Shown here piece after piece: positions 4,261 to 19,991 of a stretch of 54,982 nt of DNA. This DNA is from a virus. Taxonomy: Duplodnaviria > Caudoviricetes. The DNA lies in the IMG/VR virus record IMGVR_UViG_3300037510_000213, positions 1 through 54,982 of that record; one strand, given 5' to 3'. The notes beneath the pieces are model-generated. The model worked only from the letters and a program-made list of their open reading frames with translations, did not search any database and was not told the DNA's origin. The first letter of the stretch is position 1; each line of letters starts with the position of its first letter. The position numbers were made by a program, and so were the translations under genes.

Positions 4261-4280
4261 TGCGCATCCTCACTCTCTCG

Positions 4281-5585
4281 TTATTTGTGAAGGGGCTTCA
4301 TTGGCCCCCAGAATGGATCAATGATCAGCTCGCCCTCTTCGCGCGACTTCTCCGCCTTGTCGATGGCCACCTTGAGTTCATCCGCCGTGCCGCCCTTCTT
4401 ATGCGTGACGCTGCGCGGGGCGAGGCTCAGCTTCTTTTCAGCGGACACCACCCGCTCTTCCAGCGCCTTGATTTTGGCCTCAAGGCTGTCAATCGTGACC
4501 TTTTCCGCTGATTTCTCAGCCATGCGTGTCTCCTTCAATTCGTCAAGCGATTTCATCATGCCGACACGATCCATCTCTGAGGCGGCTTGCGCGTCCATCA
4601 TGGTTTGAAGCATGTTGTAGAACGAATCGAGCACCGTGAGCATGCGCTGCATATCGGGCACGGCGTCAGCGGCGGGCGTCTCTGCCTTGTCGTCTTCCTC
4701 TTCCACCATGTCCTCAGCCATATCCGCCGCTTCCGTGGTGGCTACGGCGTCCGCTTCGACGGGGGGTATGGGCTTCTTGGGCGGCGTCGGTGGCAGCGCC
4801 TTGTGGATCAGACCCAGGGCCTCAAATTCCTTGTCAATTTCGCCCGTTTTGGCGTGAAACTTTGCGGCTGCGTTTTTGATCCCGATGGGTTCGAAGATCT
4901 GATCAATGAGCTTGTCACTTTGAGGACTTGCCATATTCACCACCCCTGCATAGGTTTTGTCATTGGCCGCGAGGCTGCGTTCTGGGAGATAGCTGGTTTC
5001 CTGCTTGAAGATGCGGTGATACGTGCCATCGGGATCGCGGTCCTTTTCAAGGTACCCGAATCGATGGGATGCGCCTGCCTTGTCGCCATTCTGCTCAGCG
5101 AAGTCAAACAGCGTCTTGGACACAGGGTTAGGCAGTTCGCGCGCCACCTCAATGAGAAAGGGTTCGCTGTAATTCACGGCGATGATCTCACCCATCACAA
5201 TGTCATCATCGTGCCACCACAACAGGGGATTGTCGCAGTGGAACAGATCCTCCCCAGGGTAACAGGACGCTTCATAGGCTTTCAGCGCCTCAGATGTGAT
5301 GGTTTCCTTCTCACGATCCTCGTAGCTGTTCGATGTGATGATCGTCATAAGGCGCAGCCCGTCCGACTTCTCACGGACGATGTGCATTCCAGGCTTCAAC
5401 GCCTCACCCTTGAACCACTTCACAATGCGCTCGACAAAGCCGCTGTCTTGCCGTGGTGTGGCGATGAACGTTTTCATCTCCTCGTGGGCGTGCTTGTGGT
5501 TCATTTCCGCTTGCGACGGATACCACGGCTCGTTATCCTCATCGGGTGTGTTGGCGATGGCGTCATGTTCGATGATGTCAGTCAT
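4281..5585 (-). CDS. Prohead protease / scaffold fusion
   Basis: DREKETIT...PLLWWHD...ASHRF...ETSYLP resembles HK97-type protease; acidic coiled-coil C-terminus; lies between portal and MCP. Confidence 0.7.
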   Translation of the reverse strand: MTDIIEHDAIANTPDEDNEPWYPSQAEMNHKHAHEEMKTFIATPRQDSGFVERIVKWFKGEALKPGMHIVREKSDGLRLMTIITSNSYEDREKETITSEALKAYEASCYPGEDLFHCDNPLLWWHDDDIVMGEIIAVNYSEPFLIEVARELPNPVSKTLFDFAEQNGDKAGASHRFGYLEKDRDPDGTYHRIFKQETSYLPERSLAANDKTYAGVVNMASPQSDKLIDQIFEPIGIKNAAAKFHAKTGEIDKEFEALGLIHKALPPTPPKKPIPPVEADAVATTEAADMAEDMVEEEDDKAETPAADAVPDMQRMLTVLDSFYNMLQTMMDAQAASEMDRVGMMKSLDELKETRMAEKSAEKVTIDSLEAKIKALEERVVSAEKKLSLAPRSVTHKKGGTADELKVAIDKAEKSREEGELIIDPFWGPMKPLHK

Positions 5586-5814
5586 GGGTATCCTCGGCTA
5601 ACTCAAGCGTGATGTAGTATTCCTGATTGAGCTTGAAGCCTTCAACCACGTGAGAGAGCACCGTCATCATGAGATTTCCAGATGGGGTGTATTTCCAATA
5701 CTTTGCATTCTCATGGCTGGGATCGTCCGAGTAGACAGCCATGAGATTGACCGATGTGTGCCCCTCACCTTGAGGAGTGATGTCAATGACCTTAAACTTT
5801 GCGCGAATGTTCAT
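5578..5814 (-). CDS. Conserved small phage protein (RAKF...EN..YWKYTPSG family), function unknown
   Basis: Recognisable motif of a widespread small phage protein; tight coupling to both neighbours. Confidence 0.7.
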   Translation of the reverse strand: MNIRAKFKVIDITPQGEGHTSVNLMAVYSDDPSHENAKYWKYTPSGNLMMTVLSHVVEGFKLNQEYYITLELAEDTHD

Positions 5815-7884
5815 CTAAAACCGTCCTCTCGCCTTGTCACTCGTGCGGACAAGCTGGCATTTACAGTTGTATCCCTTGCATGCGAGGCTGCTGGCCCGTG
5901 GGAGGATGCCGCGCGCCTCATAGGTCTTGAAGCGGTGCACCTGCCCGTTCATGCGCAAGCAGTCTTTGCAGTGCTCAGCAAGACCATAGCGCCATTCAAA
6001 CATCGCATTGGCGGCGGCGCTGCCCAATCCCTTGTCCGTGAACTGTTGGAGCGACTTACCCCACATCATCGCGCGGTCTTGTGCGTTGGCCCCATTCACG
6101 GCCTTTGTCTTGTACACGTCATCGGCCAAACCGTTGATGTACTGGTTCTGATCCACCAACACGCCCATGTAGCGCGCGTTGTCATCAGGGTCTAAGGCGT
6201 CCACATACACCTGCCCTTGTGCCAACCCATCCTTGTAGGCTTGCAAGCCGTAATTCTTGAGGAAACTGCGCATGACGACGGTGAAGGCGCGACGATCAAG
6301 ATAGGTGTTTGGCTGACTGGCTGACACCAACAGATCGCGCACATCCTGAACGAATAATGCTTGCGTGGTGAGATAGTCCTTCTGCGCTTTGGCCGTGATG
6401 TCGTCATTCACATCATCGTTGATGTTCACCTGTGGCTTGGGGGCTTGCCCTGGGACGCCCCCAGGTGTGCCGTTTTGTGCCACAGGGGTAACAGGGGCCG
6501 CGCCGGATGTGTTGTCTTCCGCCGTAAAGGGCACATTGACCACATCATTGGCGCGCGGGGTGTTTTCAATGGCATCGCGCACAGGCTCGATCTCATTGGC
6601 CAGAAGTGTGCGCTGCTCATTGGGTGACAGGGCCGCGCCCATGCTGGCCACTGCTGCCCCCAGGATTTGCATCTTTTGCGCGTCTTCCAACGCCTCTTGA
6701 GAGTCACGATACTTAAATTCAAACGTGTACTCATCGGGGAGAAGGTCATTCAACCGACGTTCCAACTCTTGCAAGAGAAAGCCGATGGTCTTGCCGCGCG
6801 CCTTCTGTGCGAGGATCATGCTTTGACCCTGTGATCCAATCGCGCCGCCGCCACTGAGCTGCATTAGCTCCTGTCGATCCACGCCCAATGACAGCGCCAG
6901 CCGATCCACGTTAAGATCGGTGTAAACGCGATAGTCGAACTTTTCAGGCGCAGATTGGAAATCATAGTTCTGGAGTTTCACCTCATGTTCAGCGCTCATG
7001 CCAAACACGAACACGCGCTGACCAAATGTTGTCTTGCCATCGGTGTGCTGCTGCGTCTGATACTTTTGGAGAATTTCGTCCCATGCAGGCTTTAAGAGAT
7101 TGCTGACCGCTGTTACCCCAGGCGGCGGCTGATCATCCAGGCGTGATGTGATGTAGCGCTGAATCCAGATCTCTTGCTGCGCCACAGGCACGGCACGCGA
7201 CAGGGCGCTGTGGCCATAGCCAGGGCGCAATTCATCGGTGTCGAGCATGTCCACCATACGAATGATGCGCGAATGATGCATGACATGGAGGCCGCCATAG
7301 CGATCATAGTAGACCGCTGGATACCGTGGATCGCCTGTGGGGTAGCATTTGAGTGTGTCGAGATTGGCCAGTCCCACAATCGCGCCCAATGGCCGATCGT
7401 AGGCATCCCCCGGCGCAATGACCTCAAGGAACCATCCTGTGTCGTAGCGCAGATAGTTCAGGACGCCTTGCGTGATGAATGTCCCCCATCCCGCGCCAAA
7501 TTGCGCTTGACGGAACACCTCCTGGAAGTATTCGACGCCGTTGCTCTTGCGCAGCCGCCACCCCTGTGTCGCCGCCATCTGACCAAACGCGGCGTTCTCC
7601 TCATCGCTGCCCTTGATCTCCCAGGGAAGCGAGGCAATGGCTTTGGCCACGCCTGTGAACGCCCCCTGAATGAGCGAGGTTTCATCCATAAGGTAGAGAT
7701 CGCGCAGCGCGTACTCGCGTGTGCGTGTGCCCCACGCAGGCAGATAGGTGCCGCGAACGCCGCCGATACTGAACTGCGATTGGATGCCATCACGCGAGAC
7801 GGAGGGCAGGACTTGAGCCGAGTCCTGAATCGCACGATTGATTTGCGCATCGGGAGAGGTGCCAGTGGTCTGAACGGGGATCAT
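5815..7884 (-). CDS. Portal protein with C-terminal MuF-like (minor head) Cys-rich domain
   Basis: Follows TerL; AIASLPWEI, PGYGHSAL portal-like motifs; C-terminus HCKDC...LACKGYNCKCQL. Confidence 0.8.
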   Translation of the reverse strand: MIPVQTTGTSPDAQINRAIQDSAQVLPSVSRDGIQSQFSIGGVRGTYLPAWGTRTREYALRDLYLMDETSLIQGAFTGVAKAIASLPWEIKGSDEENAAFGQMAATQGWRLRKSNGVEYFQEVFRQAQFGAGWGTFITQGVLNYLRYDTGWFLEVIAPGDAYDRPLGAIVGLANLDTLKCYPTGDPRYPAVYYDRYGGLHVMHHSRIIRMVDMLDTDELRPGYGHSALSRAVPVAQQEIWIQRYITSRLDDQPPPGVTAVSNLLKPAWDEILQKYQTQQHTDGKTTFGQRVFVFGMSAEHEVKLQNYDFQSAPEKFDYRVYTDLNVDRLALSLGVDRQELMQLSGGGAIGSQGQSMILAQKARGKTIGFLLQELERRLNDLLPDEYTFEFKYRDSQEALEDAQKMQILGAAVASMGAALSPNEQRTLLANEIEPVRDAIENTPRANDVVNVPFTAEDNTSGAAPVTPVAQNGTPGGVPGQAPKPQVNINDDVNDDITAKAQKDYLTTQALFVQDVRDLLVSASQPNTYLDRRAFTVVMRSFLKNYGLQAYKDGLAQGQVYVDALDPDDNARYMGVLVDQNQYINGLADDVYKTKAVNGANAQDRAMMWGKSLQQFTDKGLGSAAANAMFEWRYGLAEHCKDCLRMNGQVHRFKTYEARGILPRASSLACKGYNCKCQLVRTSDKARGRF

Positions 7885-7885
7885 G

Positions 7886-9193
7886 TTAATACCTTAGTGC
7901 ATGGCACATGTAGCGGCAGGCGTCCGCTGTGTGATCGTCAACCTTCAGTGGCTTCGGCTCTCCTGTCACGGAGATGTCATAGCGATAGGTCTGATGCTCT
8001 CGAATAGACAGCTTGCAGCGTGGATGAAATCGAAGAAGACGCTGGCCCTGCCCATCGCAAAGGAGGCGACGAACGTTCTTGATGCCTTCGTTAACCTTGT
8101 GCGTTGCGCCAAAGGTCTGGATACCGAGTGCCCAGATACGCGCCTTCAACTGTGCCGCGCTGCTGTCCACATACGCGATGTCAGGGCGGGGGTATCCCTT
8201 TGCCAAGGCGTTTGCCAGGGTGGTTTCTTCAACCTCCCCCGTTGCCGCATACTCGTCAAAAATGTTCAATCCGCCGCGTGCTGTGAATTGGCCAAACAGG
8301 ATCACACGCGGATGATAGGAGGCCGAGCCAGGGCCATCGCCATAGACATAGCCATCATCCACGCCCCACACCACAGGCAGGTTGGGATCATATTTTGCCT
8401 CTTCACTGACATTGCCTGTGTTCAACGTAAGGTCAAAGTTGTCGTAAATCGCGCCTGCGTCCTCTTCAAAGGAGGCGGTGTACTCTTGCGCAAAGGAGCG
8501 CGTGGGGAGAAGCTTGCGCTGCATTTCGATTTCAGCAGGATCAATGTGGGGGTTGGCGTACTCATGCCCCACCGTTGGAAATTTCCATGATGCCCACAAC
8601 GGCTCATCAGGGTCTTGTCCCATCTGAAACAACTTAAAGAAGTCATTGAATCCGCATGGGGTGCTGAGAAAGTACGCTGTGCCCTTGCGCTTGCTAAGAG
8701 TGGGCAGCAGGATCTCAGTCCACTTGGAAAACAGAGACGGAACAAACGCCGCCTCATCGATCACAATTGTGTCGTACTCAAACGGGCGAACGCTGTCAGC
8801 AGCGGTGGTGTCGAGTGACCATCCCGTGTAACGCGCGCCATTGGGCAGCTCAATCTTAAGCGTGCCCTCGTTGACTTTGGCCTCAGCAGGGAGCCGTGGC
8901 TTCAAATACTCCCAGATCGCCCGCGTGGTCTTGTAGGCAGGGGCAAGCGATGCCACAAGTTTGCCTTTGCGCAGATCAGCGTTCAGGATCTCAGCGGCAA
9001 AGTCTGTCTTGCCCCACTTGCGACCACAGCACAGCAGCTTGAAGCGGGCGGGTGAATTGGCAATGAGGCGCTGCCCTGGGTGAAGGCGGGCCAGCCCATC
9101 GTAAGCCGCCGCCTCAGCCTTGATCTTCTCCAACCGATATTGGTACCTCAGCCTTTGCAAAGAGGGATCTAACGAGGGTGTAGTCATGGTCAA
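7886..9193 (-). CDS. terL: Terminase large subunit
   Basis: Walker A CGRKWGKT, Walker B IVIDEAA, STPCG coupling motif, nuclease GVDDG...DHTADACRY; the start may be the ATG at 9187. Confidence 0.92.
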   Translation of the reverse strand: MTMTTPSLDPSLQRLRYQYRLEKIKAEAAAYDGLARLHPGQRLIANSPARFKLLCCGRKWGKTDFAAEILNADLRKGKLVASLAPAYKTTRAIWEYLKPRLPAEAKVNEGTLKIELPNGARYTGWSLDTTAADSVRPFEYDTIVIDEAAFVPSLFSKWTEILLPTLSKRKGTAYFLSTPCGFNDFFKLFQMGQDPDEPLWASWKFPTVGHEYANPHIDPAEIEMQRKLLPTRSFAQEYTASFEEDAGAIYDNFDLTLNTGNVSEEAKYDPNLPVVWGVDDGYVYGDGPGSASYHPRVILFGQFTARGGLNIFDEYAATGEVEETTLANALAKGYPRPDIAYVDSSAAQLKARIWALGIQTFGATHKVNEGIKNVRRLLCDGQGQRLLRFHPRCKLSIREHQTYRYDISVTGEPKPLKVDDHTADACRYMCHALRY

Positions 9194-9764
9194 ATGTGTC
9201 CAGCGCGTCGGGATAGGTCAGCTTGCCCGCCTTGATGAGTGCAACTGTTTCGTCCTGCCATGTGAGTTCAATCTTGAGTCTCTCGGTGAACAAGCCAAAC
9301 TGCTTACCGAGGAGTGTTAACGCCTTTTGAGGGTCATGGAGTTCAATGGTGTCTTCGAAGATCTCTGTTTCCTCGGCATTTGGCCCATCACCGCGAGAGA
9401 TGCGCGTGGTCTTGTGATAGAAGCGCTTGATAAGATTGGTCTTCTTTGCGGCGCGGGCAGCAACCCAATCAATCTGTTGTGTTTCTTCGTCCCACAACTC
9501 ACCAATGTCACCACGGGCATGCTGTGTCAGAAGCATCATGACCTCTTTGGCCTCCATTGTGTTCTCAGCAAAGAAGGCATCAATCTCTTGACGGATGTCT
9601 ACATTTGACAACAGTCGGCTGCCCTGCTGACGGGCGGTGTCTTCCGAATATCCAGCGGTAAGCGCAGCCTTTGTAGCATTAAATCCATTGGATAGATAAG
9701 CGATGAGAAAGGCGCGTTGTTTGTCCGTAAGATTGGAGGGAGGGGTTTCAGGGGTATCAGTCAT
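9114..9764 (-). CDS. terS: Terminase small subunit
   Basis: LTDKQRAF...NATKAALTAGYS..TARQQGSRLL and DPQKALTLLGK signatures. Confidence 0.92.
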   Translation of the reverse strand: MTDTPETPPSNLTDKQRAFLIAYLSNGFNATKAALTAGYSEDTARQQGSRLLSNVDIRQEIDAFFAENTMEAKEVMMLLTQHARGDIGELWDEETQQIDWVAARAAKKTNLIKRFYHKTTRISRGDGPNAEETEIFEDTIELHDPQKALTLLGKQFGLFTERLKIELTWQDETVALIKAGKLTYPDALDTFDHDYTLVRSLFAKAEVPISVGEDQG

Positions 9765-9774
9765 AACGTCACCA

Positions 9775-9805
9775 GAATCAAAAACGCGCCTGTGCAGAGG
9801 CGCGT
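9775..9805 (-). terminator. Intrinsic terminator in the late-operon leader
   Basis: Minus strand ACGCGCCT-CTGCAC-AGGCGCGT then TTTTGATTCT. Confidence 0.6.
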
Positions 9806-9863
9806 CATGTCATGTATTGAAGGGGGTCGTGTTCCGTGGCAGAGAGAACGCGAACTGTCTATG

Positions 9864-9893
9864 AGTGTACGCTGAAAATAGGTGACATGTCAA
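9864..9893 (-). promoter_or_regulatory. Sigma70-like late promoter overlapping a TGACATGTCA palindrome
   Basis: TTGACA-N18-TACACT on the minus strand, upstream of terS. Confidence 0.6.
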
Positions 9894-10222
9894 GCAATTG
9901 TGGAACGCTTGCGCATGTCCGCCTGACACGTGGTGCAGTAGTAGCAGCGGCCCCGCCGGAGCGTGCGCGATTTGTCCCGCGCAAACGCCTTATCTTTCTT
10001 CCACTGTCCACACCTGCTGCACATGAGCATGGTGTGGATGTTGACGACCTGACCGTTCATGGTGCGCACGTTGGGCGGTGTCTCAAGATCCTTGCGCAGC
10101 AGATCGTGTAAGGCGGTCTCTTCCACCTCGCGGGGTTTCAGGCTCACTTGCACTGTGTCGTCATTGTAGCGGTTGCCATCGGGGGAGGTGTAATGAAGAA
10201 TCGCCAACATCGTCATGCTCAT
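9890..10222 (-). CDS. Zinc-finger protein (CxxC...CxxC), possible late regulator
   Basis: CSRCGQWK...CYYCTTC; last gene before terS; own promoter at about 10272-10299. Confidence 0.6.
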   Translation of the reverse strand: MSMTMLAILHYTSPDGNRYNDDTVQVSLKPREVEETALHDLLRKDLETPPNVRTMNGQVVNIHTMLMCSRCGQWKKDKAFARDKSRTLRRGRCYYCTTCQADMRKRSTIA

Positions 10223-10271
10223 GAGGAACCTCTTTATGCGGTTGTCGAGTGCAAGTGCGCCGTTTATGACT

Positions 10272-10306
10272 ATTCTAGCGCGTTTACATGACACGTCAAG
10301 TAAACG
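10272..10306 (-). promoter_or_regulatory. Promoter with palindromic operator
   Basis: TTGACG-N16-TAGAAT (minus); inverted repeat CGTTTAC-A-TGACACGTCA-A-GTAAACG at 10281..10306. Confidence 0.6.
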
Positions 10307-10358
10307 TGTTCAGTTTCGGGGCATGGCAGACGCCCGTGGGTGCGGGCGTCGCGGAAGT

Positions 10359-10634
10359 CTAAGAGGCGCTGGGCTTTTTCTTGACGACGTGCCCCATATC
10401 ATCAAACTCCAACTGCTCAACGGTTTCACGTACAGCTTCCAAGACAGATTGATAGTCCGCTGATGTGCCATAGAGGAACCAATGGGCGTCAGATTCCGTT
10501 TCTCGATTGAAGCGATATACGCACTTGAGCGCTGAACAATACACCTCAAGCAATTCCACCTCAAGCTCATTGCATGCGCGGATCACATAACTCATGATGC
10601 GATTTTGGCGCGGGATCATGCCCTGTGCGCTCAT
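10359..10634 (-). CDS. Hypothetical protein
   Basis: 91-aa ORF preceded by AGGAGG. Confidence 0.65.
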   Translation of the reverse strand: MSAQGMIPRQNRIMSYVIRACNELEVELLEVYCSALKCVYRFNRETESDAHWFLYGTSADYQSVLEAVRETVEQLEFDDMGHVVKKKPSAS

Positions 10635-10703
10635 TGCTGGCCTCCTGTGTGGTCTAATTCCATCCCCATGACTTGCAGATGTCGGGGTGAAAGCGCTGAA
10701 ATG

Positions 10704-11213
10704 TTATGCCCAACCTTTTGCTTTCAGCCATTTGGTCAAACTTTCTTTTCGAGCCGCCTCTGCGCGGGTCTTTGCGAGATCCATAAGATACTCTCGCACT
10801 GTTACCCCATACCATTCCCAGAATACATCATCAAAAGGGTCAAGCGTGACTGCGCGATTAAGAACGGGGGTTGTGGGGTACTCTCTTCCAAGCGCATAGA
10901 CCTCAAAATCACGCGCCTCAGCTTGAGCAATGTATTTATCCCCAGGATGATCCAAGAATAGGATAATCTTCGAACCATACCCCAGGTCAAAAGATCGCGC
11001 ATAGGAGTCGACCTGTCTCATTGCATCCCCTGTAGACATGATGGACATCTTGCATTCGATGATTGAGACATGTCCTGTCTCAGGGTGAATGGTCAGGAAG
11101 TCAATAATCCCTCCTGGCACCTTAAACTCATGCAAATACAGGAGTCCATTGCCAGTAATCCAATGGGCGGCACGGGGATGCAAGATCTGATGTTCATGCG
11201 GTATCTTAATCAT
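10704..11213 (-). CDS. PD-(D/E)XK nuclease family protein
   Basis: HEFKVPGGIIDFLT...IIECK...QVDSY motif; overlaps the ParR stop. Confidence 0.7.
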   Translation of the reverse strand: MIKIPHEHQILHPRAAHWITGNGLLYLHEFKVPGGIIDFLTIHPETGHVSIIECKMSIMSTGDAMRQVDSYARSFDLGYGSKIILFLDHPGDKYIAQAEARDFEVYALGREYPTTPVLNRAVTLDPFDDVFWEWYGVTVREYLMDLAKTRAEAARKESLTKWLKAKGWA

Positions 11214-11613
11214 CCTCATCGTCTCCATACGACTTTGATGTTCCGAACAACTGCACCACACTCTTGTTGAGCTTGCTGGTCGTATCCTGATAGCGCTGTT
11301 CATCCCAATCAGGCGATTGACGCGCAGCAGACAGATCAACTGTCGAAAGCATGTTGACATGCTCCATGATCAGCTTCAGGGTGTGGCGCATCTCGCGAGT
11401 GAACTTGATCTCATTGTCTTCGTGCGGGGTGTACCCTGCGTCAAGCTTCTCACGCAGGGCAATCAGCGCTTCTTTCATGATCAGCCGATCCGTCCATTCA
11501 GGATTCGTTTTCAGCCAATCATAGGCCTCGATTGCCTGAACCTCTGAGGGGAAGTCATCGCGCAGCCGCGCTTGAATGTGGCGGCTATGGCGGTCTGGTT
11601 TCGCGCGCGTCAT
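11206..11613 (-). CDS. ParR-like centromere-binding adaptor (RHH-like)
   Basis: ATGA-coupled downstream of the actin-like gene; beta-helix-helix N-terminus (HIQARL...DRLIMKEALIAL); acidic tail. Confidence 0.65.
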   Translation of the reverse strand: MTRAKPDRHSRHIQARLRDDFPSEVQAIEAYDWLKTNPEWTDRLIMKEALIALREKLDAGYTPHEDNEIKFTREMRHTLKLIMEHVNMLSTVDLSAARQSPDWDEQRYQDTTSKLNKSVVQLFGTSKSYGDDEDD

Positions 11614-12740
11614 GCGAACACCAGCCGTTGATTGTCACCCACCCACACCTTCAACGCTTCCATGCCGCCGCGCAGATTGGCAAGGTGAAGCTTTCCAGGC
11701 TCTTCGGCCATGTAGACGAAATCATGCTGCAAAATACCGTCTCTCTTGTTGGCAAGATAGGGGAAGAGACGTTCGCCGCCGCCGCCGCCTACGACAATGC
11801 CGGAGAAGTTTTTACCACCTTCCATGCGATCCACGTAGATGCCTTGGGTGCGATCCAAGATAGGGGCGATGGCATTGAGAACAGCCTGCGACACATCCAC
11901 CCACTTGTTGGAGATCTTGACCTTCTTAAGTTGCAGGGCGCTTTCAAGGATGTTGGCAGGAACATCCTTGAACTCTTTGAACGTGTCTGGATAGAGGCTC
12001 TTCAACTCTTCCTCTAAGGCCTTCAAGACATTCTGAATACCGAGATTGAACACAGCAGCTTGATCAAACAGCGGCTTGACGGTTTTGTTCTTGCCGATGC
12101 GAACGGGGGTGATACTGCTAATCTTGCCACCAAAGTCGAAGACAAGGATGTAATCGCCATCCGCAAGGTTAACGGGATTGCCTGCCTCAGAATTGCGAAT
12201 GATGAAGCGAATCAGCGCACCGCTCGGCTCATCCCAGGGGACGATGTGGCGAACGACGTAGGTCAGTTCATCGCCCTTGATGGTGCGGATTTTGTGGACG
12301 CCCCCAAGCAGATCCATCATCTGCTCAACATAGGGGATTGCGTCCGGGGGATGGGCAATGGCAAGAACGATATTGTTATGGCCTTCGGGGAAATGACGGA
12401 GAAGCTTTGCACAGAAAGCCACATCCCAGACGCCTTCCACATACTTGCCAGCACCTGTGACGCGCTTGATCTGACCGCCGCGTGTGGCCTCTTCACCCAC
12501 AACATAGGGCATGTACTCTTTGTTGCTGCGATGGCGCATCTCAAACACAGCGCTGTCATCCTGCGCATCCGTGCGGTATTTGGCGCGTGTCTTGCGCGCA
12601 CCATACGACGCATCGCTCGGTGTCTGAATCGCGTAGGGAATCACATCCTCATAGCCGTATTGTCCCATCAACCCTGACTTGCCATTTGTGTTTCCCTGAT
12701 CATCGATCAGAAACACGGGAGAGTCTTTCACCTTTGCCAC
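11610..12740 (-). CDS. parM: Actin-like ATPase, ParM/StbA family (type II partition)
   Basis: Phosphate-1 DDQGNTNGK, connect-1 EPSGA, phosphate-2 VFDFGG, adenosine VVGGGG; GTG start with GGAGG. Confidence 0.85.
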   Translation of the reverse strand: MAKVKDSPVFLIDDQGNTNGKSGLMGQYGYEDVIPYAIQTPSDASYGARKTRAKYRTDAQDDSAVFEMRHRSNKEYMPYVVGEEATRGGQIKRVTGAGKYVEGVWDVAFCAKLLRHFPEGHNNIVLAIAHPPDAIPYVEQMMDLLGGVHKIRTIKGDELTYVVRHIVPWDEPSGALIRFIIRNSEAGNPVNLADGDYILVFDFGGKISSITPVRIGKNKTVKPLFDQAAVFNLGIQNVLKALEEELKSLYPDTFKEFKDVPANILESALQLKKVKISNKWVDVSQAVLNAIAPILDRTQGIYVDRMEGGKNFSGIVVGGGGGERLFPYLANKRDGILQHDFVYMAEEPGKLHLANLRGGMEALKVWVGDNQRLVFA

Positions 12741-12762
12741 GAACAGCCTCCTTAAAAAAATA

Positions 12763-12825
12763 GGTGATACGCCGTGGTATCACATGTGTATCACCAGTAT
12801 ATCACCTTAAGGAATCGCTGTCACC
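12763..12825 (-). promoter_or_regulatory. parC-like centromere repeats overlapping the parMR promoter
   Basis: RTATCAC at 12777, 12788, 12799 (11-bp period), inverted GTGATAC at 12764; promoter GTGACA-N17-TATACT on the minus strand. Confidence 0.65.
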
Positions 12826-12836
12826 TTACAATCCTC

Positions 12837-13178
12837 TCACCTCCTGGCCCGATGCCCATCCGTCCACCATAGGTTTTCTATATGCGTGTCATAAACATCG
12901 CCATTGCGATAGATGACCTTGCGTCGATGCATATTGCCCACAGGGTTGAAGGCCTCCATGACCAGCCGCCCCGCGTAAATCCACCGCCTGCGTCCCCCAT
13001 GCAAGATCAGATCGTAGAAGACGCCGCGCGGCTCCTTGTAGCCAACAAGAAAGCGGTTGCGCACAGGCGACCAGCACCGCCCCCACGTTGACACCTCATA
13101 GGGGTGGGCATACCCCTTAAGCTCAATCCATCGCTCCGGCGCATAAGTGTTGGAGTCAGGGGCAGGGAGTCCGATCAT
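12837..13178 (-). CDS. NUMOD4 / degenerate HNH domain protein
   Basis: WIELKGY..PYEVSTWGRCWS (NUMOD4); RLVMEAF...VIYRNGD...IENLWW lacks the catalytic His. Confidence 0.7.
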   Translation of the reverse strand: MIGLPAPDSNTYAPERWIELKGYAHPYEVSTWGRCWSPVRNRFLVGYKEPRGVFYDLILHGGRRRWIYAGRLVMEAFNPVGNMHRRKVIYRNGDVYDTHIENLWWTDGHRARR

Positions 13179-13405
13179 GGCAAATCCTTTGATCTCTCAT
13201 ACGCCTCCACCAGATCGAACGCCGCCATGTGATCCCACACCCCTGTGTCGACATAATACGCCATGCGATACAGGGGATAGAAGCGCGTCACGATGTGCGA
13301 TCCCCAGGGGTGCAGGGTGTACCACAGCACCGCCTCACCCGTGGGCGTCAGATGCGCTGTCAGGGTGTAGACGGTGTGGTCAGTGGCGAGGCGCAGCGTG
13401 GGCAT
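13175..13405 (-). CDS. Hypothetical protein
   Basis: MPTLRLATDH start immediately after the thyX stop; ATGA-coupled to the next gene. Confidence 0.55.
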   Translation of the reverse strand: MPTLRLATDHTVYTLTAHLTPTGEAVLWYTLHPWGSHIVTRFYPLYRMAYYVDTGVWDHMAAFDLVEAYERSKDLP

Positions 13406-13407
13406 GA

Positions 13408-14148
13408 TCAGGCGTCCCGATTGCTCATCCGCACAATGGGCGCAGGCAGGGTGTATGTCTCGAATGCCTCCGCAGTCCACGGCATGAGCGGCTTGAACGT
13501 CTGCTCATACATGACGTTGGCGTATTGGCGAATCTCCCATTGGGCGTCCTGGGCCATACGCAGCTTGAAGAAATTCAGCGCATTGTGGGCATCCATCTTG
13601 ACCATGAACGTGTAGTAGCTGGCCCATCCTGGCAAGAACAGGCGCGCCTGTTCACGTGCCACGCCGCGATCAAGCGCCAACTGATACAGATCAAAGGAGT
13701 TCATATAGTGGCTTCTTAGCCGCACGGTCAGATCTTGCGCGTCGTCAAAGTCGATCAGCCCATCACTGCCTTGCTTGTTGCTCTGGGATTGTGCCCGCCA
13801 CTCATCAGGGACATAAAACTCATCCTCTGTAAACTCGACATAGCGCCCCGATTGCGCTGAATAGCTGGCCATGCGGTGACGGACCCACTGCCACCAGACA
13901 AGCACAGGAGCCTTGATGCGCCATTGAAAGACAACCATCTCAAACGGGCTGGTGTGGCGATCCTTGTACAGGCGCATGAGCAAGCGCTTGTCAGCGTCCT
14001 CCCCCTTGCTGGCCCCATTGAACGACACGCGGGCCGCATTCACCACCGCCATATCTGGTGTAATACCTGTGAGAGGGTGGGGCAGCAGATCGATCAGCGT
14101 CACGTGCCCCTTGTCGAGTACAGGGAACGGGGTATTAATGATGGTCAT
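13408..14148 (-). CDS. thyX: Flavin-dependent thymidylate synthase
   Basis: AARVSF, HTSPFE, RHRMASYSAQSGRY (RHRx7SxR), AREQAR, AQWEIR. Confidence 0.95.
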   Translation of the reverse strand: MTIINTPFPVLDKGHVTLIDLLPHPLTGITPDMAVVNAARVSFNGASKGEDADKRLLMRLYKDRHTSPFEMVVFQWRIKAPVLVWWQWVRHRMASYSAQSGRYVEFTEDEFYVPDEWRAQSQSNKQGSDGLIDFDDAQDLTVRLRSHYMNSFDLYQLALDRGVAREQARLFLPGWASYYTFMVKMDAHNALNFFKLRMAQDAQWEIRQYANVMYEQTFKPLMPWTAEAFETYTLPAPIVRMSNRDA

Positions 14149-14489
14149 GAAACATCCTTCCATCTTTCACCATTGGCAATTCTACGGATAGTGGGTGACG
14201 ACACCCCATAGGCGCGGGCAATGGCAGCCTTTGATTCATTTCCTCTCACAAGCCGCTGTTTGATCTCACGCACCTGCGTTGGAGCCAGTTTTTGGCGCGC
14301 GCGTGCTCTGGGAAAGGGATCTTTCAGGGGCGGTGCAAGATGGATGTGAGTGACGCCGTTGATGATCTTCCACACCGCCATATCAGTCACGCCGTAAATC
14401 TCACCAATCTGGCGGTAGTTCTCCTCAGTGGTCAACCATCGATCCCAGATAGCACACACATCCGCATCTGACAGCTTGCCATCCATCAC
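14145..14489 (-). CDS. Tandem HTH DNA-binding protein
   Basis: Two repeats KL...IGEIYGVTDMAVWKI / IARAYGVSSPTIRRI. Confidence 0.75.
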   Translation of the reverse strand: MMDGKLSDADVCAIWDRWLTTEENYRQIGEIYGVTDMAVWKIINGVTHIHLAPPLKDPFPRARARQKLAPTQVREIKQRLVRGNESKAAIARAYGVSSPTIRRIANGERWKDVS

Positions 14490-14797
14490 CCACCCCCTGC
14501 CATGATCTCACGCGCACGGGTGAGGAGGGCGATCCAATGATCAAGATCTTCTTGATTCATGGTTGGGCCAAACATCCCTTGCTCATCCACGGGCCACAAC
14601 CAACCTGCCTTCAAATTCACCGCAAGGTGTAATGTATGCCCAAGTGGATGGGGTTGTGTCTTAAGCATCGTAAAATCATGTCCATTGCGAGACAGCCCAT
14701 ATGTATCAATCTCAATCGCGGGCGTCTCCGGCATCGCATCATGCAGCGCAGCCGCCTGCAATCTGCGCACACGTTCGGCGTCAATGATGTGAGTCAT
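14486..14797 (-). CDS. Hypothetical protein
   Basis: ORF coupled to both neighbours. Confidence 0.6.
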   Translation of the reverse strand: MTHIIDAERVRRLQAAALHDAMPETPAIEIDTYGLSRNGHDFTMLKTQPHPLGHTLHLAVNLKAGWLWPVDEQGMFGPTMNQEDLDHWIALLTRAREIMAGGG

Positions 14798-15069
14798 GGC
14801 GTCTCGCCTTTCTGGGGGATGTAAATGCAGGCAAAGGGAGGGGAGGGGTAGCGCTCATACCCCGTCTGATGGTAGCGGCGAATCGTCCACTGACCCTGGC
14901 ATGAGACGCATGTATAAGGCATGTCGTCAACACGATTTGACCCCCACACAATCTGACTGTCGTCATCTGCGATGTGCTGGCCTGTCTTGCCGCAATGAGG
15001 ACAAAGGGCGTGATCTCGCTTGCGGCCAAAGAACTCAAACCGCGCGTTGTCTTCGAACCCTGTGATCAT
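14794..15069 (-). CDS. Zn-ribbon protein
   Basis: CPHCG...CVSC. Confidence 0.6.
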   Translation of the reverse strand: MITGFEDNARFEFFGRKRDHALCPHCGKTGQHIADDDSQIVWGSNRVDDMPYTCVSCQGQWTIRRYHQTGYERYPSPPFACIYIPQKGETP

Positions 15070-15812
15070 GGTGTCACCTTTCCAACGCGCTCAACAGTGT
15101 TGGTGTCGGGGTTCCATGCGTGTGTGGCAGGGGTGCGGGCGTCCAGCTTTGCCAGCGTGTCGTGTGCAGCGCGGTCTATGTGTCGATGGTCGATCCCATT
15201 CGCCCAGAGAAACCCGCCAACCGTCACCAGCAGATCAATCGCTTCACGGGCGGCGTTGATTTCAGCCTCCTGCTCAATGGCCGCGCTGTGATGCGCCTCA
15301 ACACACTGACGATACTCATCAACCGCTTCGATCAGTTCGGCAAATTCTTCCTGCATCTTGGTCAGCGCACCCTGCATTGATGGCTCACCGCCGAAGCGCG
15401 TCACATAGGCTTCGGAGGTGGTCATGATCTGCGCAAACAGATCTTGCATCCCTTCTCGTTCTGCCTTCTCCTCATGCGCCTCATACCATGCGAGATCAAG
15501 CGCAAGCCGTGCAACCTTCGTCTCGATCTCTTCCGTGTGCGAGAGGTGGTACTCAGTGGCGGGGACGATGTTCATGCTGCGCATGGGATCAATCTGCAAC
15601 TCTTTGAGTGCAGCAGCCATCGCCTTCGATGCGTCTTCCCCCATCACAAGCAGTCCTGGGAGGGGAGAGGCAAACAGCGCCATGATCTTGTCAGCAAACA
15701 CCTCTTCAACGCGCCTGTCAGGGACCATCACACGGCCATCGTGCAGCTCGATCTCTTTGGCGGTGGGAATCTGACTCAACAGACTGATAAGCTTGTCGCG
15801 GGTGGTCATCAT
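15066..15812 (-). CDS. Protein with C-terminal MazG-like nucleotide pyrophosphohydrolase domain
   Basis: KMQEEFAELIEA...EAIDLLVTV (EExxE...ExxD). Confidence 0.65.
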   Translation of the reverse strand: MMTTRDKLISLLSQIPTAKEIELHDGRVMVPDRRVEEVFADKIMALFASPLPGLLVMGEDASKAMAAALKELQIDPMRSMNIVPATEYHLSHTEEIETKVARLALDLAWYEAHEEKAEREGMQDLFAQIMTTSEAYVTRFGGEPSMQGALTKMQEEFAELIEAVDEYRQCVEAHHSAAIEQEAEINAAREAIDLLVTVGGFLWANGIDHRHIDRAAHDTLAKLDARTPATHAWNPDTNTVERVGKVTP

Positions 15813-15875
15813 TTGGTTATCTCTTTCGCTTTGCGGCGGATCTGGTTGCGCTCCGTGCCAGACACGCGGCCTGAT

Positions 15876-16130
15876 TTAATCAAACTCATGGTCGGCCCAT
15901 TCATTCATCTCATCTTCTGTTTCGAATGCCCAACCGTCATATGTCCACTGCCCACACTCAACGCATGGGCTTTCGCTCAACACATGGTCGTTGACCGTGC
16001 TGCAATTGCCGCACCACTTTTCATAGCAGTGATAGCAGATGTTCGGCACATAGCTGATTGTGAATGATTTGGCAGGGCGCATCTGACGACAGCGCGGACA
16101 TTCTTGATATTCGGTGGTGATGGCGGTCAT
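15876..16130 (-). CDS. Cys-rich Zn-binding small protein
   Basis: Four CxxC pairs; AAGGAGG RBS. Confidence 0.65.
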   Translation of the reverse strand: MTAITTEYQECPRCRQMRPAKSFTISYVPNICYHCYEKWCGNCSTVNDHVLSESPCVECGQWTYDGWAFETEDEMNEWADHEFD

Positions 16131-16187
16131 GGTACCTCCTTATCAAACTAGAAAAGGGGATGCGTGATTGCATTCCCTAAGGTAGGG

Positions 16188-16724
16188 CTATTCAGGTATT
16201 TCGTTTAGGCGCGCAAATTCACCGTAGTGTTCTAATGCGGCTTTGTTATAAGCAACTGCCGCTTGATGCTTGTCTGTAAATAGGCCTAAATACAAATTCT
16301 TGCCATTAACAACGATTTTAGCGATCCATTTGTTGGCGCATTTTCGCCACGAAACGCCCCTATAGCCTGATGTGTTTCGGGACTGAATTTTACTATTCAA
16401 TGTGTTCTGGTTATACGTTGCCAAACGAAGATTTTCGCGGCGATTGTCCAGTCCGTCGCCATTGATGTGGTCAACAATCTCCCCTTTGACAAGTTTGCGA
16501 TTAAGCACGCGCTCTAGTATCACTCTGTGCAAGAGTAAAAGAGATTGCCCTCTAGGATGAGTGGGGTCTTTGCGAAGATGGGCTGCATAAGCAGTGTATT
16601 TACCGTTTATCCGCGTAGACCATTTAAAGCGCGCCAAATCAGCGTCTTGTAAAGAAACAATAGCTGTATAGCCGCGGGTCAACGGTATTTGAATAACAGA
16701 GGGATTCGGGGTATCATTTGTCAT
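16188..16724 (-). CDS. HNH homing endonuclease with AP2 domain
   Basis: LHRVI...VDHINGDGLDNRRENLR; SGYRGVSW...YLGLF...AYNKAA..YGEFARLN; AT-rich. Confidence 0.92.
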   Translation of the reverse strand: MTNDTPNPSVIQIPLTRGYTAIVSLQDADLARFKWSTRINGKYTAYAAHLRKDPTHPRGQSLLLLHRVILERVLNRKLVKGEIVDHINGDGLDNRRENLRLATYNQNTLNSKIQSRNTSGYRGVSWRKCANKWIAKIVVNGKNLYLGLFTDKHQAAVAYNKAALEHYGEFARLNEIPE

Positions 16725-16843
16725 AGGTATCACGCCTCCGCGTGGTATCTCAAGGCACAGGATGTTTCCGCATCGCTGTGCTTTTACGTTAGCCTCATTA
16801 TACCATAGGTTCTCGATGTGTATGTTAGTCAATATCATGGTAT

Positions 16844-17251
16844 TTAACCTTGACCCATCGCTTTGGCTTTGCGCCTAATCTGATTAGCCTCGGTACCCGA
16901 CACACGCCCACTTTGAGAAGAATGCTTTTCGGGTCGTATGTACAAAATGTCATAGTCACTGTCTTGCGTCATGGCGGCGTCTTTGGCTGTGTTCGACGTG
17001 TAGCCTCGCTTGGTGTCAAAGCCTGCATTGTGGCGGGGGATGGTCAGCACGTGATACACACACACGCGCGCCGCAGGATTGAGGATGGGACTCCACTTTT
17101 TCAGCAGCGCTTGCGCCATCTCATCGGCCCCTGGTGCATCGCCCACCACGAAGTCGTGGCTGCTGGCCAAGGCTGACAGGATGTGCGGGGCATACTGCGC
17201 GTCAAATTCGTCTTTCGTCAAATCTCGATGCCCGCTAATCATGGCAATCAT
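16844..17251 (-). CDS. SLOG/YspA-like nucleotide-binding protein
   Basis: ISGHR...VVGDAPGAD...KDAAM...SGTEAN pattern. Confidence 0.7.
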   Translation of the reverse strand: MIAMISGHRDLTKDEFDAQYAPHILSALASSHDFVVGDAPGADEMAQALLKKWSPILNPAARVCVYHVLTIPRHNAGFDTKRGYTSNTAKDAAMTQDSDYDILYIRPEKHSSQSGRVSGTEANQIRRKAKAMGQG

Positions 17252-17429
17252 CGTGCTACCTCCTGTGCTCTCATCCGCTTCGTGAATGGGTATGACTCGC
17301 GCAGCGCCTCGCACTCTGCGCACCGTGCCCCCATCGTCCCCGTGTCGACGCCGCACGACGGGCACGCCATGCGGTTGTAGGGCGTGGGGAACAGATCGAT
17401 ATAGCGTTCGGGTGGGGGTGGGGTGGGTC

Positions 17430-17747
17430 TCATGCGGGCACCCACGCGCCAATCTCGCGCCCATCCATGATCGAATAGAACACATAGCGATCTCCATGCT
17501 TCTCGGCACGCATGACCAGCTCATCGCCATGGGTGTTGCACAGGGTCAGCGTCATACCGTGGGGGATGAGCGAGGTCAGACTGATAGGGTGGCTGTACAG
17601 CGAAAACACGGGATTGACGAGCCGATAGTGGTACAACTGCCCCTCATGCATCCAACTGTGCAAGCCTGGATACAGACGCCACAACGTGCGCGCCATCGGC
17701 GAGGCAGGGCGGGCGTCGGCGGGGATGAGGGATGTGTGGATGCTCAT
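17430..17747 (-). CDS. Hypothetical protein
   Basis: ORF in a coupled chain, AGGAG RBS. Confidence 0.55.
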   Translation of the reverse strand: MSIHTSLIPADARPASPMARTLWRLYPGLHSWMHEGQLYHYRLVNPVFSLYSHPISLTSLIPHGMTLTLCNTHGDELVMRAEKHGDRYVFYSIMDGREIGAWVPA

Positions 17748-17923
17748 TTCGCATTCTCCTGTGTCAGATTCGCCATCGTGCGGTTGTAGGCATGGGTGAC
17801 CTTGCGGCGCTGGTCAGCCATCTCAGTCTTGTCGATGCGATGCGCGATATAGTCATTAGTGATGCGCTTGATCTCACGGCGGTACACCTCGGTGATGAGG
17901 GTGGGATTTTTGGTGTCAGTCAT
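17744..17923 (-). CDS. Hypothetical protein (59 aa, MTDTKNPTLITEVY...)
   Basis: Read manually; AGGAG RBS; ATGA overlap with the next gene. Confidence 0.55.
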   Translation of the reverse strand: MTDTKNPTLITEVYRREIKRITNDYIAHRIDKTEMADQRRKVTHAYNRTMANLTQENAK

Positions 17924-17936
17924 GGTGTGCTCCTAT

Positions 17937-18146
17937 TCAAAACATCCGCATGGTTTGGCGCGGCGTGTGTTCTTCAATAATCCGCTTGCAAGTCGGGCAA
18001 GCCGACTCAATCTCTGTGCAAGGTGTTTCACGGGTCACAATCCATCCATTTTTGACCCATCCACGCACCCACATCATCTCGTTGTCTCCCTCTTCGCAGG
18101 CGTCAATCACACACCCGCAGGGAAGACGTGCGATATAGATCACCAT
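17937..18146 (-). CDS. Small Cys-containing hypothetical protein
   Basis: PCGC...CPTC; overlaps the upstream gene. Confidence 0.5.
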   Translation of the reverse strand: MVIYIARLPCGCVIDACEEGDNEMMWVRGWVKNGWIVTRETPCTEIESACPTCKRIIEEHTPRQTMRMF

Positions 18147-18316
18147 TTGTTGGCAGGGGTCCGGTTATTCTTTTCCAGGTCCCGCTCCAACAGGACTTCC
18201 GAGACACGGGCCATGCTCACACCAAATTGCACAGCGATGTTCTTGAGAGCTACGCCACGCGTGCGCAGCTCGATCATCTTTGCGATTTTCTTCTCATCCA
18301 GGATTGTCTTAGGCAT
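18140..18316 (-). CDS. Small HTH protein
   Basis: MIELRTRGVALKNIAVQFGVSMARVSEVL. Confidence 0.65.
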   Translation of the reverse strand: MPKTILDEKKIAKMIELRTRGVALKNIAVQFGVSMARVSEVLLERDLEKNNRTPANKW

Positions 18317-18354
18317 AGCATCTCCAATGGGGCAGGGGTCGCCTGCCCTGGGGT

Positions 18355-18591
18355 CTAGTTGTTGGCAGATGTACCTTTTTTGGTATATCTGCCTGGGGAG
18401 CCTTGCCAGCGCCCACGGCATGTCCATGTCAAGCGGGCTTTTGGGAAGGCAATCACAGCGTCGTCATGCACGTACTCCCAGAACACGGTGACGATTCTGT
18501 GCATAACCATGAACCCCTCTTTGCGCGGGGCGATCATGACGTATTTCTTGAATGTGATAGGGCGGGGACGCCGTTTCTCTTCGTAGCTCAC
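18355..18591 (-). CDS. Hypothetical protein
   Basis: GTGA-coupled to the antirepressor-like gene. Confidence 0.45.
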   Translation of the reverse strand: MSYEEKRRPRPITFKKYVMIAPRKEGFMVMHRIVTVFWEYVHDDAVIAFPKARLTWTCRGRWQGSPGRYTKKGTSANN

Positions 18592-19502
18592 TGCCGCCCT
18601 CCCGTCAACAGGGGCTTGCCCGTGATGAGATCAATTCCAAGACGCTCTGCCATTTCGCGCGCCTGAATGCCGATGGCTGATGCCACACTTTTGATCTCCC
18701 GATACACCACAGACTCGTGAACGATTTCGTTCTCGCCATAGTCTTCAAGGCGCAAGCGTGTCGCCTCTTCGTTGACCATCGTGTAAGCCAGCGCAAGGCG
18801 GCTCATCCCATCGCGCGGGTTTGCCCCTGGCTTTTGCCCTAGCAGGGCATTCAGCCCTTTGGCATTCGCGCCAAGCGTGCCCTCATATCCGAGATTGGTG
18901 GCAACGCCCAAATTGGCATTGGGGGAGATCTTCACAATGATCGCTGTCAACTGCTTGCGTGTGACCTTGCCCAACTCACGGACAAGAATCCATGCGTCAT
19001 CTTTGCCTTGAAGATCGGCTTTGGCGCGGGCATACAGGTTGATTGCGGTTTCAGCGGCTTCGGGGTCGCGGCGGGCGGCGTCGACAAACACACCAGATTG
19101 AGCCAGGTAGGAAAGGACTGTGTTGCGGACACCTGTATCAACGCCCATATGCTGTGTGATTGTGTAGATGGTTTGCCCATCCGCATAATCCATCTGATAG
19201 GTCTTGCCATCTGACGCCGTGTAGGGCAGTTGTACGCAGGATGCGTATACGTGAACATCGGCCTTTTTCATGCGCTTTTTGAGGTCTGCCCAGAAACGTG
19301 AGGGGTTATCCGTTTGCGCAATCCCAGACAACCAATCGCGGACGGCGTACATCTCGCGTCCGTCAGGCATGGTCACGCGTTGGAGAGGGAAGTTGTGCTC
19401 ACGTGATGCCTTGACGATTTCAGTTTCGTCAGGGTCACGGCGGGATGTCTCTTCAAGAAAAGACAATTGGCGGGACTCGGATTCCGTGCTATGCTTCGTC
19501 AT
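18588..19502 (-). CDS. BRO-N-like antirepressor
   Basis: YAVRDWL...RFWADLKKR...QLPYTASDGKTYQMDYAD (BRO-N-like); probable start MTKHS at 19502. Confidence 0.75.
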   Translation of the reverse strand: MTKHSTESESRQLSFLEETSRRDPDETEIVKASREHNFPLQRVTMPDGREMYAVRDWLSGIAQTDNPSRFWADLKKRMKKADVHVYASCVQLPYTASDGKTYQMDYADGQTIYTITQHMGVDTGVRNTVLSYLAQSGVFVDAARRDPEAAETAINLYARAKADLQGKDDAWILVRELGKVTRKQLTAIIVKISPNANLGVATNLGYEGTLGANAKGLNALLGQKPGANPRDGMSRLALAYTMVNEEATRLRLEDYGENEIVHESVVYREIKSVASAIGIQAREMAERLGIDLITGKPLLTGGRQ

Positions 19503-19646
19503 GGTGGATCTATTCTCCACTATGCCCTGCCAGTGCTTCATTCACTGACGGGGCGCTGAAATTTGGCCCTCTTTTTGTGCGATTGCACAGCTTAATTATA
19601 TCACATGTCACGTATTTTTGGGTGATTTTTAAGCACGAATCACACT

Positions 19647-19910: not shown

Positions 19911-19991
19911 TCGGTAAACTCCGTTGTGTTTGGGGGAAGGGTGGTCTAGACCCTCCCCTAGATTCTAACCCAGTTTTGTGGAGGTGATCGC

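Follow-up and report, generated by a model that had tools for sequence, protein, structure and literature searches.

A few plasmids have actin-type segregation systems that are well understood, and such systems have been documented in only a handful of phages. In the ParMRC system of plasmids R1 and NR1 (parC-parM-parR; stbA/stbB), a centromere site, an actin-like motor gene and an adaptor gene follow each other in this order, and parC of R1 consists of ten phased 11-bp iterons lying over the promoter of the operon. Here we describe a cassette with the same site-motor-adaptor order in the virus record IMGVR_UViG_3300037510_000213 (Duplodnaviria; Caudoviricetes), 54,982 bp in length with a G+C content of 54.4%, the whole of which is referred to below as the window. 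We put at roughly 80% the probability that the locus belongs to the type II (actin-type) DNA-segregation cassettes, of the ParMRC/AlpACS kind, and that it works like one of them.

A phage-borne system is known from CGP3, an integrated prophage of Corynebacterium glutamicum. As described in the portion of PMC4446434 on which we draw, AlpC, which is actin-like, and AlpA, the adaptor, are encoded in CGP3 by early genes, AlpA binds repeats in the promoter region of the operon, the loss of either AlpA or AlpC halves the copy number of the phage DNA, and the role of the cassette lies in replication once the prophage has been induced. For the Bacillus plasmid prophages IEBH, vB_BtS_B83 and Bp8p-C, pairs formed by a ParM-like and a ribbon-helix-helix (RHH) protein are listed in the portion of PMC8026635 on which we draw, which also cautions in so many words against taking a partition system as a sign of a plasmid prophage. 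With several such pairs in print, the first-pass annotation of the window understated the record when it spoke of a few actin-based cases among phage-plasmids.

The cassette genes lie on the minus strand of the window, with the adaptor gene directly downstream of the motor gene as in ParMRC. The features of the cassette are as follows.

12764-12805, minus strand: parC-like site composed of three direct GTGATAY heptamers and one inverted GTATCAC
12805-12799 (GTGATAT), 12794-12788 (GTGATAC) and 12783-12777 (GTGATAC), minus strand: the direct heptamers, in 11-bp steps
12770-12764, minus strand: the inverted heptamer GTATCAC
12824-12796, minus strand: sigma-70-like promoter, with -35 GTGACA, a 17-nt spacer and an extended -10 TG-n-TATACT (10/12)
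12747-12795, minus strand: leader, in which heptamers 2-4 may form an RNA hairpin (GGUGAUAC...GUAUCACC), with a U7 run and a Shine-Dalgarno sequence
12760-12754, minus strand: the U7 run, after the hairpin and before AAGGAGG
12753-12747, minus strand: Shine-Dalgarno sequence AAGGAGG of the motor gene
11610-12740, minus strand: motor, an actin-like ATPase of the ParM/Alp kind, 376 aa, GTG start
11206-11613, minus strand: adaptor candidate, 135 aa, its ATG overlapping the TGA of the motor gene (ATGA)
C-terminal tail of the adaptor: LFGTSKSYGDDEDD

The motor was modelled by AlphaFold2 (AF2) with a pLDDT of 90.1 and a pTM of 0.87, and the model has the actin fold. Its top Foldseek matches were pCBH ParM, Ta0583, pSK41 ParM, BtParM, Alp7A, R1 ParM and Alp12 (E 3e-20 to 1e-14), CorM was also among the best, all of these being actin-like proteins from plasmids or archaea, and the ParM/Alp structures ranked above MreB, Hsp70 and actin. 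The nearest solved structure is pCBH ParM of Clostridium botulinum (6ixw/6izr, E 3e-20 to 7e-20, TM 0.66-0.73); pSK41 ParM of Staphylococcus aureus (3js6) was matched at E 1.6e-17 and R1 ParM at 3e-15 to 5e-14. Among viral models, the nearest were gp506 of Bacillus phage G, at E 1.8e-18, and three proteins without a name, the four spanning 1e-18 to 1e-14. A word-indexed search gave 25 relatives, each from a metagenome or a metagenome-assembled genome (MAG), with identities of 26-83%, and a profile built from the resulting 26 sequences matched, in the Protein Data Bank (PDB), pSK41 ParM (2e-07) and pCBH ParM (5e-07) best, followed by R1 ParM (0.012-0.038). The motor also matches PHROG 691, 'partition protein', at 4.5e-06. 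In the 26-sequence alignment the invariant columns include D14-x-G16-N17, D202/G204-G205 and G319-G321, which we take to correspond in position to the phosphate-1, phosphate-2 and adenosine motifs that an actin fold should have. The first-pass annotation, which had called a ParM-like ATPase with all actin-fold motifs, is thus borne out by fold, by profile and by the conservation of these columns, the assignment of the motifs being our own.

The motor is only 12-19% identical to the solved members of the family; the figure is 17-19% for R1 ParM and 17-18% for pCBH and pSK41 ParM, which are plasmid proteins whose filament architecture is not transferable to the phage protein. An exhaustive profile search collected 805 cluster representatives at E<=1e-3, a number that fell to 405 at E<=1e-10 and to 196 at E<=1e-30, and of ten representatives looked up a single one carried a name, 'ParM/StbA family protein [Anaerolineae bacterium]'. 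Because the structure and profile matches all point to ParM/Alp proteins, while 196 clusters were found at E<=1e-30 and the identity to solved members is so low, we concluded that the motor is a ParM/Alp-type actin from a sizeable, unnamed branch.

The adaptor carries no Pfam domain and has 14 relatives at 62-75% identity. Their alignment shows a conserved N-terminal strand (R-H-I-Q-A-R-L), a conserved helix (W-x-D-R...ALLALR) and a conserved C-terminus (L-F-G-x-S-K-x-Y followed by an acidic tail). The AF2 monomer model is poor (pLDDT 66); it is unstructured at residues 1-23, has helices at 24-34 and 42-58, and is helical in its middle part, an order of secondary structure that, as modelled, fits an RHH protein before dimerising. 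Seven related loci (L001 to L007) were compared with the window, and the homologue of the adaptor gene stands directly after the motor gene in all seven, that of L006 being cut off by the contig end. In two independent contigs the adaptor gene is split in an identical manner into two overlapping frames of 114 and 72 aa (L002, 6786-7252; L007, 1002-1468), a split that may reflect a true frameshift, decay into a pseudogene or a sequence feature that both contigs share.

The complex of the motor with adaptor residues 66-135 was predicted in three runs, together with three controls. The predicted docking reached an ipSAE of 0.67 (0.67, 0.70 and 0.66 in the runs), compared with 0.01 for the best of the three controls, and passed a mark that is attained by 58 of 80 solved complexes and by 2 of 110 mismatched pairs. 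The runs had at least 62% of their contacts in common, with an adaptor pLDDT of at least 44, and the predicted interface places adaptor residues 113-133 against motor residues 122-181, 220-223 and 361-373. The C-terminus of the adaptor is thereby predicted to bind the motor; in R1, a complex of ParM with a ParR peptide has been solved (4a62).

Read on the plus strand, the direct heptamers are RTATCAC at 12777, 12788 and 12799. The motif occurs at 25 sites on both strands of the genome, compared with 10.0 +/- 3.0 expected from shuffles, and four of these sites fall inside 45 bp, a density reached in none of 2,000 first-order Markov simulations of the genome; the largest simulated cluster contained one site in 1,758 simulations, two in 241 and three in one. 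The heptamer cluster is far beyond chance. The -10 of the promoter-like site overlaps the first heptamer, and the repeats of exact 11-bp spacing over the promoter, as first described, are therefore confirmed, with an inverted copy in addition. Short repeats phased by 11 bp over the operon promoter are a feature that the window has in common with R1, and on sequence evidence they give the upstream region the layout of a ParMRC centromere.

The upstream regions of the window and of L001 to L006 (L007 has no upstream DNA) were searched for GTGATAC in either orientation with at most one mismatch and in 10-13-bp steps. At least three phased copies were found in four of the seven regions, those of the window, L003, L004 and L006. 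L004 carries four TGATAC copies of the same sense in steps of 10, 11 and 10 bp, L006 two direct and two inverted copies, and L003 one degenerate copy in addition to three of GTATCA(C/G). L001 has GTTACA three times and L002 two GTTAC copies 10 bp apart; L005 is ambiguous, with one TTGATAC and three CTGTATA.

The N-terminal strand of the adaptor varies together with these repeats. In the five TGATAC loci this strand is H-[IL]-Q-x-R-L, and in the two GTTAC loci it is A-L-I-Q-x-R-L. Since the motor of L002 (Leu, GTTAC) is 80% identical to that of L006 (His, TGATAC), while the motor of L001 stands at about 50% from all others, the switch of His/Leu together with TGATAC/GTTAC occurred twice, independently. 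Such covariation is the pattern that a direct read-out of the heptamer by the adaptor strand would predict.

A quite different use of the heptamers, namely as an RNA hairpin that would act as an intrinsic terminator or attenuator in the interval separating the upstream HNH gene from the motor gene, with no centromere at all, is suggested by the leader. Its hairpin, in which heptamers 2 and 4 can pair and which the U7 run follows, has a folding energy of -16.6 kcal/mol (z -2.43), a value that 4 of 200 shuffles reach; a terminator scan flags 12783-12764, and at the same place L006 has a stronger hairpin (-25.6 kcal/mol, z -5.4) followed by U5. We consider it improbable that the cluster is mainly such a hairpin. 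Only the window and L006 combine a hairpin with a U-run, and the other five upstream regions have none; the folding z is about 0 in L001 and L002 and about -1.3 in L003 and L005. The four repeats of L004 are all of the same sense without an inverted copy, and neither the helical phasing of direct repeats nor their covariation with a protein residue would have a meaning for a hairpin. A terminator or attenuator role leaves the family-wide repeat pattern unexplained. The two roles may coexist.

Because the repeats are clustered, the gene pair is kept in 7/7 related loci, repeat and strand covary, and docking is predicted, we read the locus as a segregation cassette of the ParMRC/AlpACS kind; its place among the ParMRC systems holds on fold, gene order, centromere layout and predicted docking. 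The ParMRC-like module proposed in the first-pass annotation thus stands. As to how it would work, dimers of the adaptor may bind the four GTGATAY heptamers through their N-terminal beta-strand (the H12-Q14-R16 side). The heptamers would lie on one face of the helix owing to the 11-bp phasing and would cover the -10 and the start region of the operon's own promoter, so that the bound adaptor would keep the operon repressed and at the same time assemble a small nucleoprotein complex. The C-terminal tail of the adaptor (about 113-133) would then dock on the actin-like ATPase, whose ATP-driven filaments would grip and move the circular phage DNA.

Several observations weigh against this reading. 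The motor scored 16.1 bits (E 0.014) with Pfam ALP_N (PF17989), below the curated cut-off of 26.3; since 15 of the 26 listed members of its family carry a precomputed PF17989 while the window protein stays under the cut-off, the motor family seems to border on this model. An NCBIfam scan of the motor, the adaptor and eight further open reading frames (ORFs) gave nothing meaningful, and for the motor no match. For the adaptor, no RHH or ParR family was found in Pfam (RHH in 0 of 19 members), no match among PDB sequences, and no fold match above noise by Foldseek (best E 8.1) or by a wide VIA-align search (best Z 3.7), in which the RHH antitoxin ParD2 appeared at Z 3.1 among unrelated helical entries. 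Atlas yielded leads only, clusters of Plasmid_stab_B (0.85) and RHH_1 (0.79). The adaptor's own fold is uncertain in the docking prediction as well, and the high docking score may owe something to the model having learned the solved complex of R1 ParM with a ParR peptide (4a62). The array has four sites only, compared with ten in R1 parC; the covariation comes from a small sample of seven loci; the promoter consensus scan of the 2.8-kb region returned 3 sites versus 2.6 expected, which makes the promoter-like site by itself weak evidence; and the leader hairpin described above belongs on this side too. The RHH fold of the adaptor is therefore unproven. In its favour speak the strand-helix-helix order of the model, the conserved x-H-x-Q-x-R-L strand, the covariation of His/Leu with the repeats and the Atlas leads. 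Of the coupled RHH-like adaptor that had been proposed, the coupling through the ATGA overlap stood, and the RHH assignment went unconfirmed.

Compared with R1, the window cassette is phage-borne instead of plasmid-borne, and its adaptor is without detectable kinship in sequence or fold to any solved or Pfam ParR. Like AlpA/AlpC/alpS of CGP3, it combines a phage-borne actin-like protein, a co-transcribed adaptor and repeats in the promoter region. In CGP3, as far as the portion of PMC4446434 used here describes it, the adaptor gene comes first, the repeats are 24 copies of TTAAnnG and the prophage is integrated; in the window the motor gene comes first and the repeats are four GTGATAY, so that the AlpACS layout of an adaptor upstream of the actin gene with many TTAAnnG repeats is not what we found. 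This likeness was judged on the description of the system. With the Bacillus plasmid prophages (IEBH, vB_BtS_B83 and pBtic235-like groups) the window has in common a tailed phage of about 50 kb, an actin-type pair and a putative centromere; most of them carry Xer-type tyrosine recombinases and IEBH is listed with none (PMC8026635, same portion), and none was recognised in the window.

The window carries the complete gene set of a tailed phage: TerS (small terminase subunit), TerL (large terminase subunit), tape-measure protein, tail protein, head-region ORFs and an exact 127-bp direct terminal repeat (1-127 and 54856-54982). ThyX and AAA_24 ATPase genes were recognised as well, no DNA polymerase was recognised among the ORFs scanned, and most of the remaining ORFs, out of roughly 78 in all, are without any family match. 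The genes with assigned positions are given below.

9114-9764: TerS
15066-15812: MazG-like pyrophosphohydrolase
21488-22873: DnaB helicase
22833-24071: O/DnaD-like initiator

A length of 127 bp is typical of the k-mer overlap left by an assembler on a circular or circularly permuted genome. For this reason the repeat is not evidence for physical ends with direct terminal repeats, although the record is classed under 'direct terminal repeats'; its completeness figure is shown as 65. The apparently complete genome of the first-pass annotation is upheld by the exact repeat, despite this figure. The longest contigs among the relatives, of 54,848 and 53,818 bp, suggest about 55 kb as the full genome size of the lineage; other long contigs of relatives measure 46,887, 46,503 and 33,216 bp. 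One relative, L001, is a 29-kb viral contig which has the head-region ORFs in common with the window, its head and packaging proteins being 44-84% identical, and which keeps the cassette in the same place, between the nucleotide-metabolism/replication genes and the terminase/packaging genes. Because L001 combines these head and packaging genes with this position, the cassette is a stable, conserved module of the lineage.

Outside this lineage few relatives were found. Both blastn and tblastn of the cassette region gave no match to deposited phages or to plasmids; tblastn of the motor gave no match at E<=1e-3 in 50,697 phage records, and no relative of it was present in 72,556 plasmid records (PLSDB). 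TerL has no close relative in IMG/VR (best 24-44% over parts), and a kinship of TerL to the SSU5-like phage-plasmids was considered and dropped, all phage matches being below 30% identity and too distant to mean anything. In a class-level scan of 401 genomes around G002, a close relative was found only in G002 itself and distant actin-like genes in five, with no prophage context. Related DNA was found as contigs in four public DNA runs from four studies, all soil metagenomes, of which one is possibly the source of the window and the other three share 0.09-0.14 of words; no RNA run was found. The run contigs placed on 1-20000 are short pieces that leave 10006-12673 uncovered and are silent on circular junctions, termini and host junctions; they neither favour nor oppose integration. 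We concluded that the cassette-bearing phages are a new lineage of ~55-kb tailed soil phages, whose host phylum probably differs from that of the Bacillus plasmid prophages, the leads, and no more than leads, pointing to Anaerolineae.

In the life of the phage the cassette may serve either the partition of a plasmid prophage or the positioning of replicating genomes. Six-frame searches gave no match at E<=1 for PF00589, PF00239, PF07508, PF00665 or PF16684; their controls gave signal, and the negatives cover these models, from which divergent enzymes could escape. Thus no tyrosine or serine integrase, rve (DDE) transposase or protelomerase family was recognised in the genome, in agreement with the first-pass annotation, whose suggested recombinase profile check this was. 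Six-frame searches for Peptidase_S24 and for AAA_31 (ParA) found neither. No CI/Cro-type repressor was found, HTH_3 scoring only under its cut-off and inside endonuclease-like ORFs, and a screen of ten small ORFs for regulators gave nothing over threshold. No lysogeny gene of any kind was recognised, and most ORFs are without a family, among which integrase-like or repressor-like functions could be hidden.

That the phage is temperate and kept as a low-copy circular plasmid prophage, with the cassette as a partition system active in lysogeny, is possible and not probable. This is what a genome of apparently full size, closed by the 127-bp repeat and free of recognised recombinase, rve and protelomerase genes, would lead one to expect; the cassette is self-contained with its own promoter-operator, and it would be the sole partition system, no ParA having been found. 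Replication through an initiator and DnaB, with no polymerase recognised, is seen in many temperate phages and plasmids, although this pair is not plasmid-specific. The ParM-like and RHH pairs of Bacillus plasmid prophages (PMC8026635, in the portion cited) fit in as well. On the other hand, no lysogeny gene was recognised, the motor has no relative in the plasmid or phage records, and a cassette of the same kind is known from an integrating phage (PMC4446434, in the portion cited). At least five homing endonucleases occur together with ThyX, a MazG-like protein, a DpdA-like protein and two methyltransferases, a gene content which in our judgement, made without a test, is commoner in virulent phages.

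It is quite possible instead that the cassette positions or spreads replicating circular genomes during productive infection or after induction, a role that would say nothing about plasmid lysogeny. AlpA/AlpC/alpS of the integrated CGP3 are a precedent, and the caution that a partition system is no sign of a plasmid prophage applies here (PMC4446434 and PMC8026635, both in the portions cited). The cassette runs in the same direction as the block of genes for replication and nucleotide metabolism and is placed immediately upstream of those for packaging, a place that it keeps in L001. Actin-fold proteins occur in other phage proteomes, such as gp506 of Bacillus phage G mentioned above, and the homing endonucleases together with the nucleotide-metabolism and modification genes also fit. 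Against this role, a self-contained, autoregulated unit of centromere, motor and adaptor is exactly what a plasmid prophage would need, and in placing the motor before the adaptor the cassette follows plasmid ParMR and not alpAC (PMC4446434, in the portion cited).

The first-pass annotation had gone further and spoken of a probable new phage-plasmid lineage. With no repressor, no plasmid relative and the precedent of CGP3 (PMC4446434, in the portion cited), nothing beyond the module and the missing integrase supports this step, and we did not follow it. The alternative that it named, DNA positioning during lytic growth, has at least the same likelihood.

Some neighbours of the cassette deserve mention. 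An ORF at 10704-11228 on the minus strand overlaps the end of the adaptor gene; it has a homologue in 0 of the 7 related loci and no family in Pfam, PHROGs or NCBIfam, and is outside the conserved module. By eye, a D...E-C-K stretch in it is reminiscent of PD-(D/E)xK nucleases. On the other side, the HNH gene at 12837-13178 (minus strand), directly upstream of the cassette promoter, seems to vary in presence between strains: in the runs X1 and X4, contigs join 12841/12842 to 13128/13196 and skip 285-354 bp, which fits a mobile homing endonuclease. In L002 the motor-adaptor pair stands beside genes for a sliding clamp, a C5 methylase and an HNH protein, followed by a Tn3-family transposase, a tyrosine recombinase and glycosyltransferases. 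The transposase (PF01526, 2e-137) is divergent from the recombinase at 9302-12465, 2.5 kb downstream of the cassette, an arrangement that presumably resembles a transposon of the Tn4430 style, situated within the element or next to it. The recombinase, about 5 kb from the motor gene, was considered as a phage integrase and rejected; beside the transposase and the glycosyltransferases it is most likely transposon-borne.

Free-standing homing-endonuclease genes are unusually dense in the window, with four HNH genes, one of them with an AP2 domain and one with NUMOD4 and a helix-turn-helix (HTH), and one GIY-YIG gene.

12837-13178, minus strand: HNH endonuclease gene, upstream of the cassette
16188-16838: HNH endonuclease gene
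24068-24565: HNH endonuclease gene
35293-35919: HNH endonuclease gene
28817-29287: GIY-YIG endonuclease gene

In addition, an HTH protein at 14145-14489 resembles the DNA-binding domains of homing endonucleases. A plus-strand island at 31167-34536 encodes a DpdA-like protein (PF23859, 2.3e-13) and two methyltransferases, one an overlapping DNA methyltransferase (PHROG 757, 7e-56) and the other of Dam type, and is possibly an anti-restriction block of DNA modification by 7-deazaguanine and methylation. At 29691-30353 (plus strand), at a divergent gene junction, a 220-aa protein with a cold-shock domain (PF00313, 1.6e-09) is encoded, an unusual cargo for a phage.

Taken as a whole, the cassette is a divergent new case of the known ParMRC/AlpACS kind in an unstudied soil phage lineage: a complete and compact unit that recurs in uncultured soil phages without relatives among the deposited phages and plasmids. 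A more far-reaching view appears doubtful to us, namely that a minimal four-site actin cassette is the vertically kept core of integrase-less soil phages living as plasmid prophages, possibly in Chloroflexota (Anaerolineae), with an adaptor family unrelated in sequence to known ParRs whose specificity can be switched by one strand residue (His/Leu with TGATAC/GTTAC). If true, this would be the first phage-plasmid lineage for Chloroflexota, and plasmid lysogeny, if shown, would extend phage-plasmids to a new host group. The locus also teaches that partition genes and the lack of an integrase alone are insufficient for calling a phage-plasmid. With four heptamers, one strand residue and a docking tail of about 20 residues, all of them predicted, the cassette offers a tidy test bed for actin-type DNA segregation.

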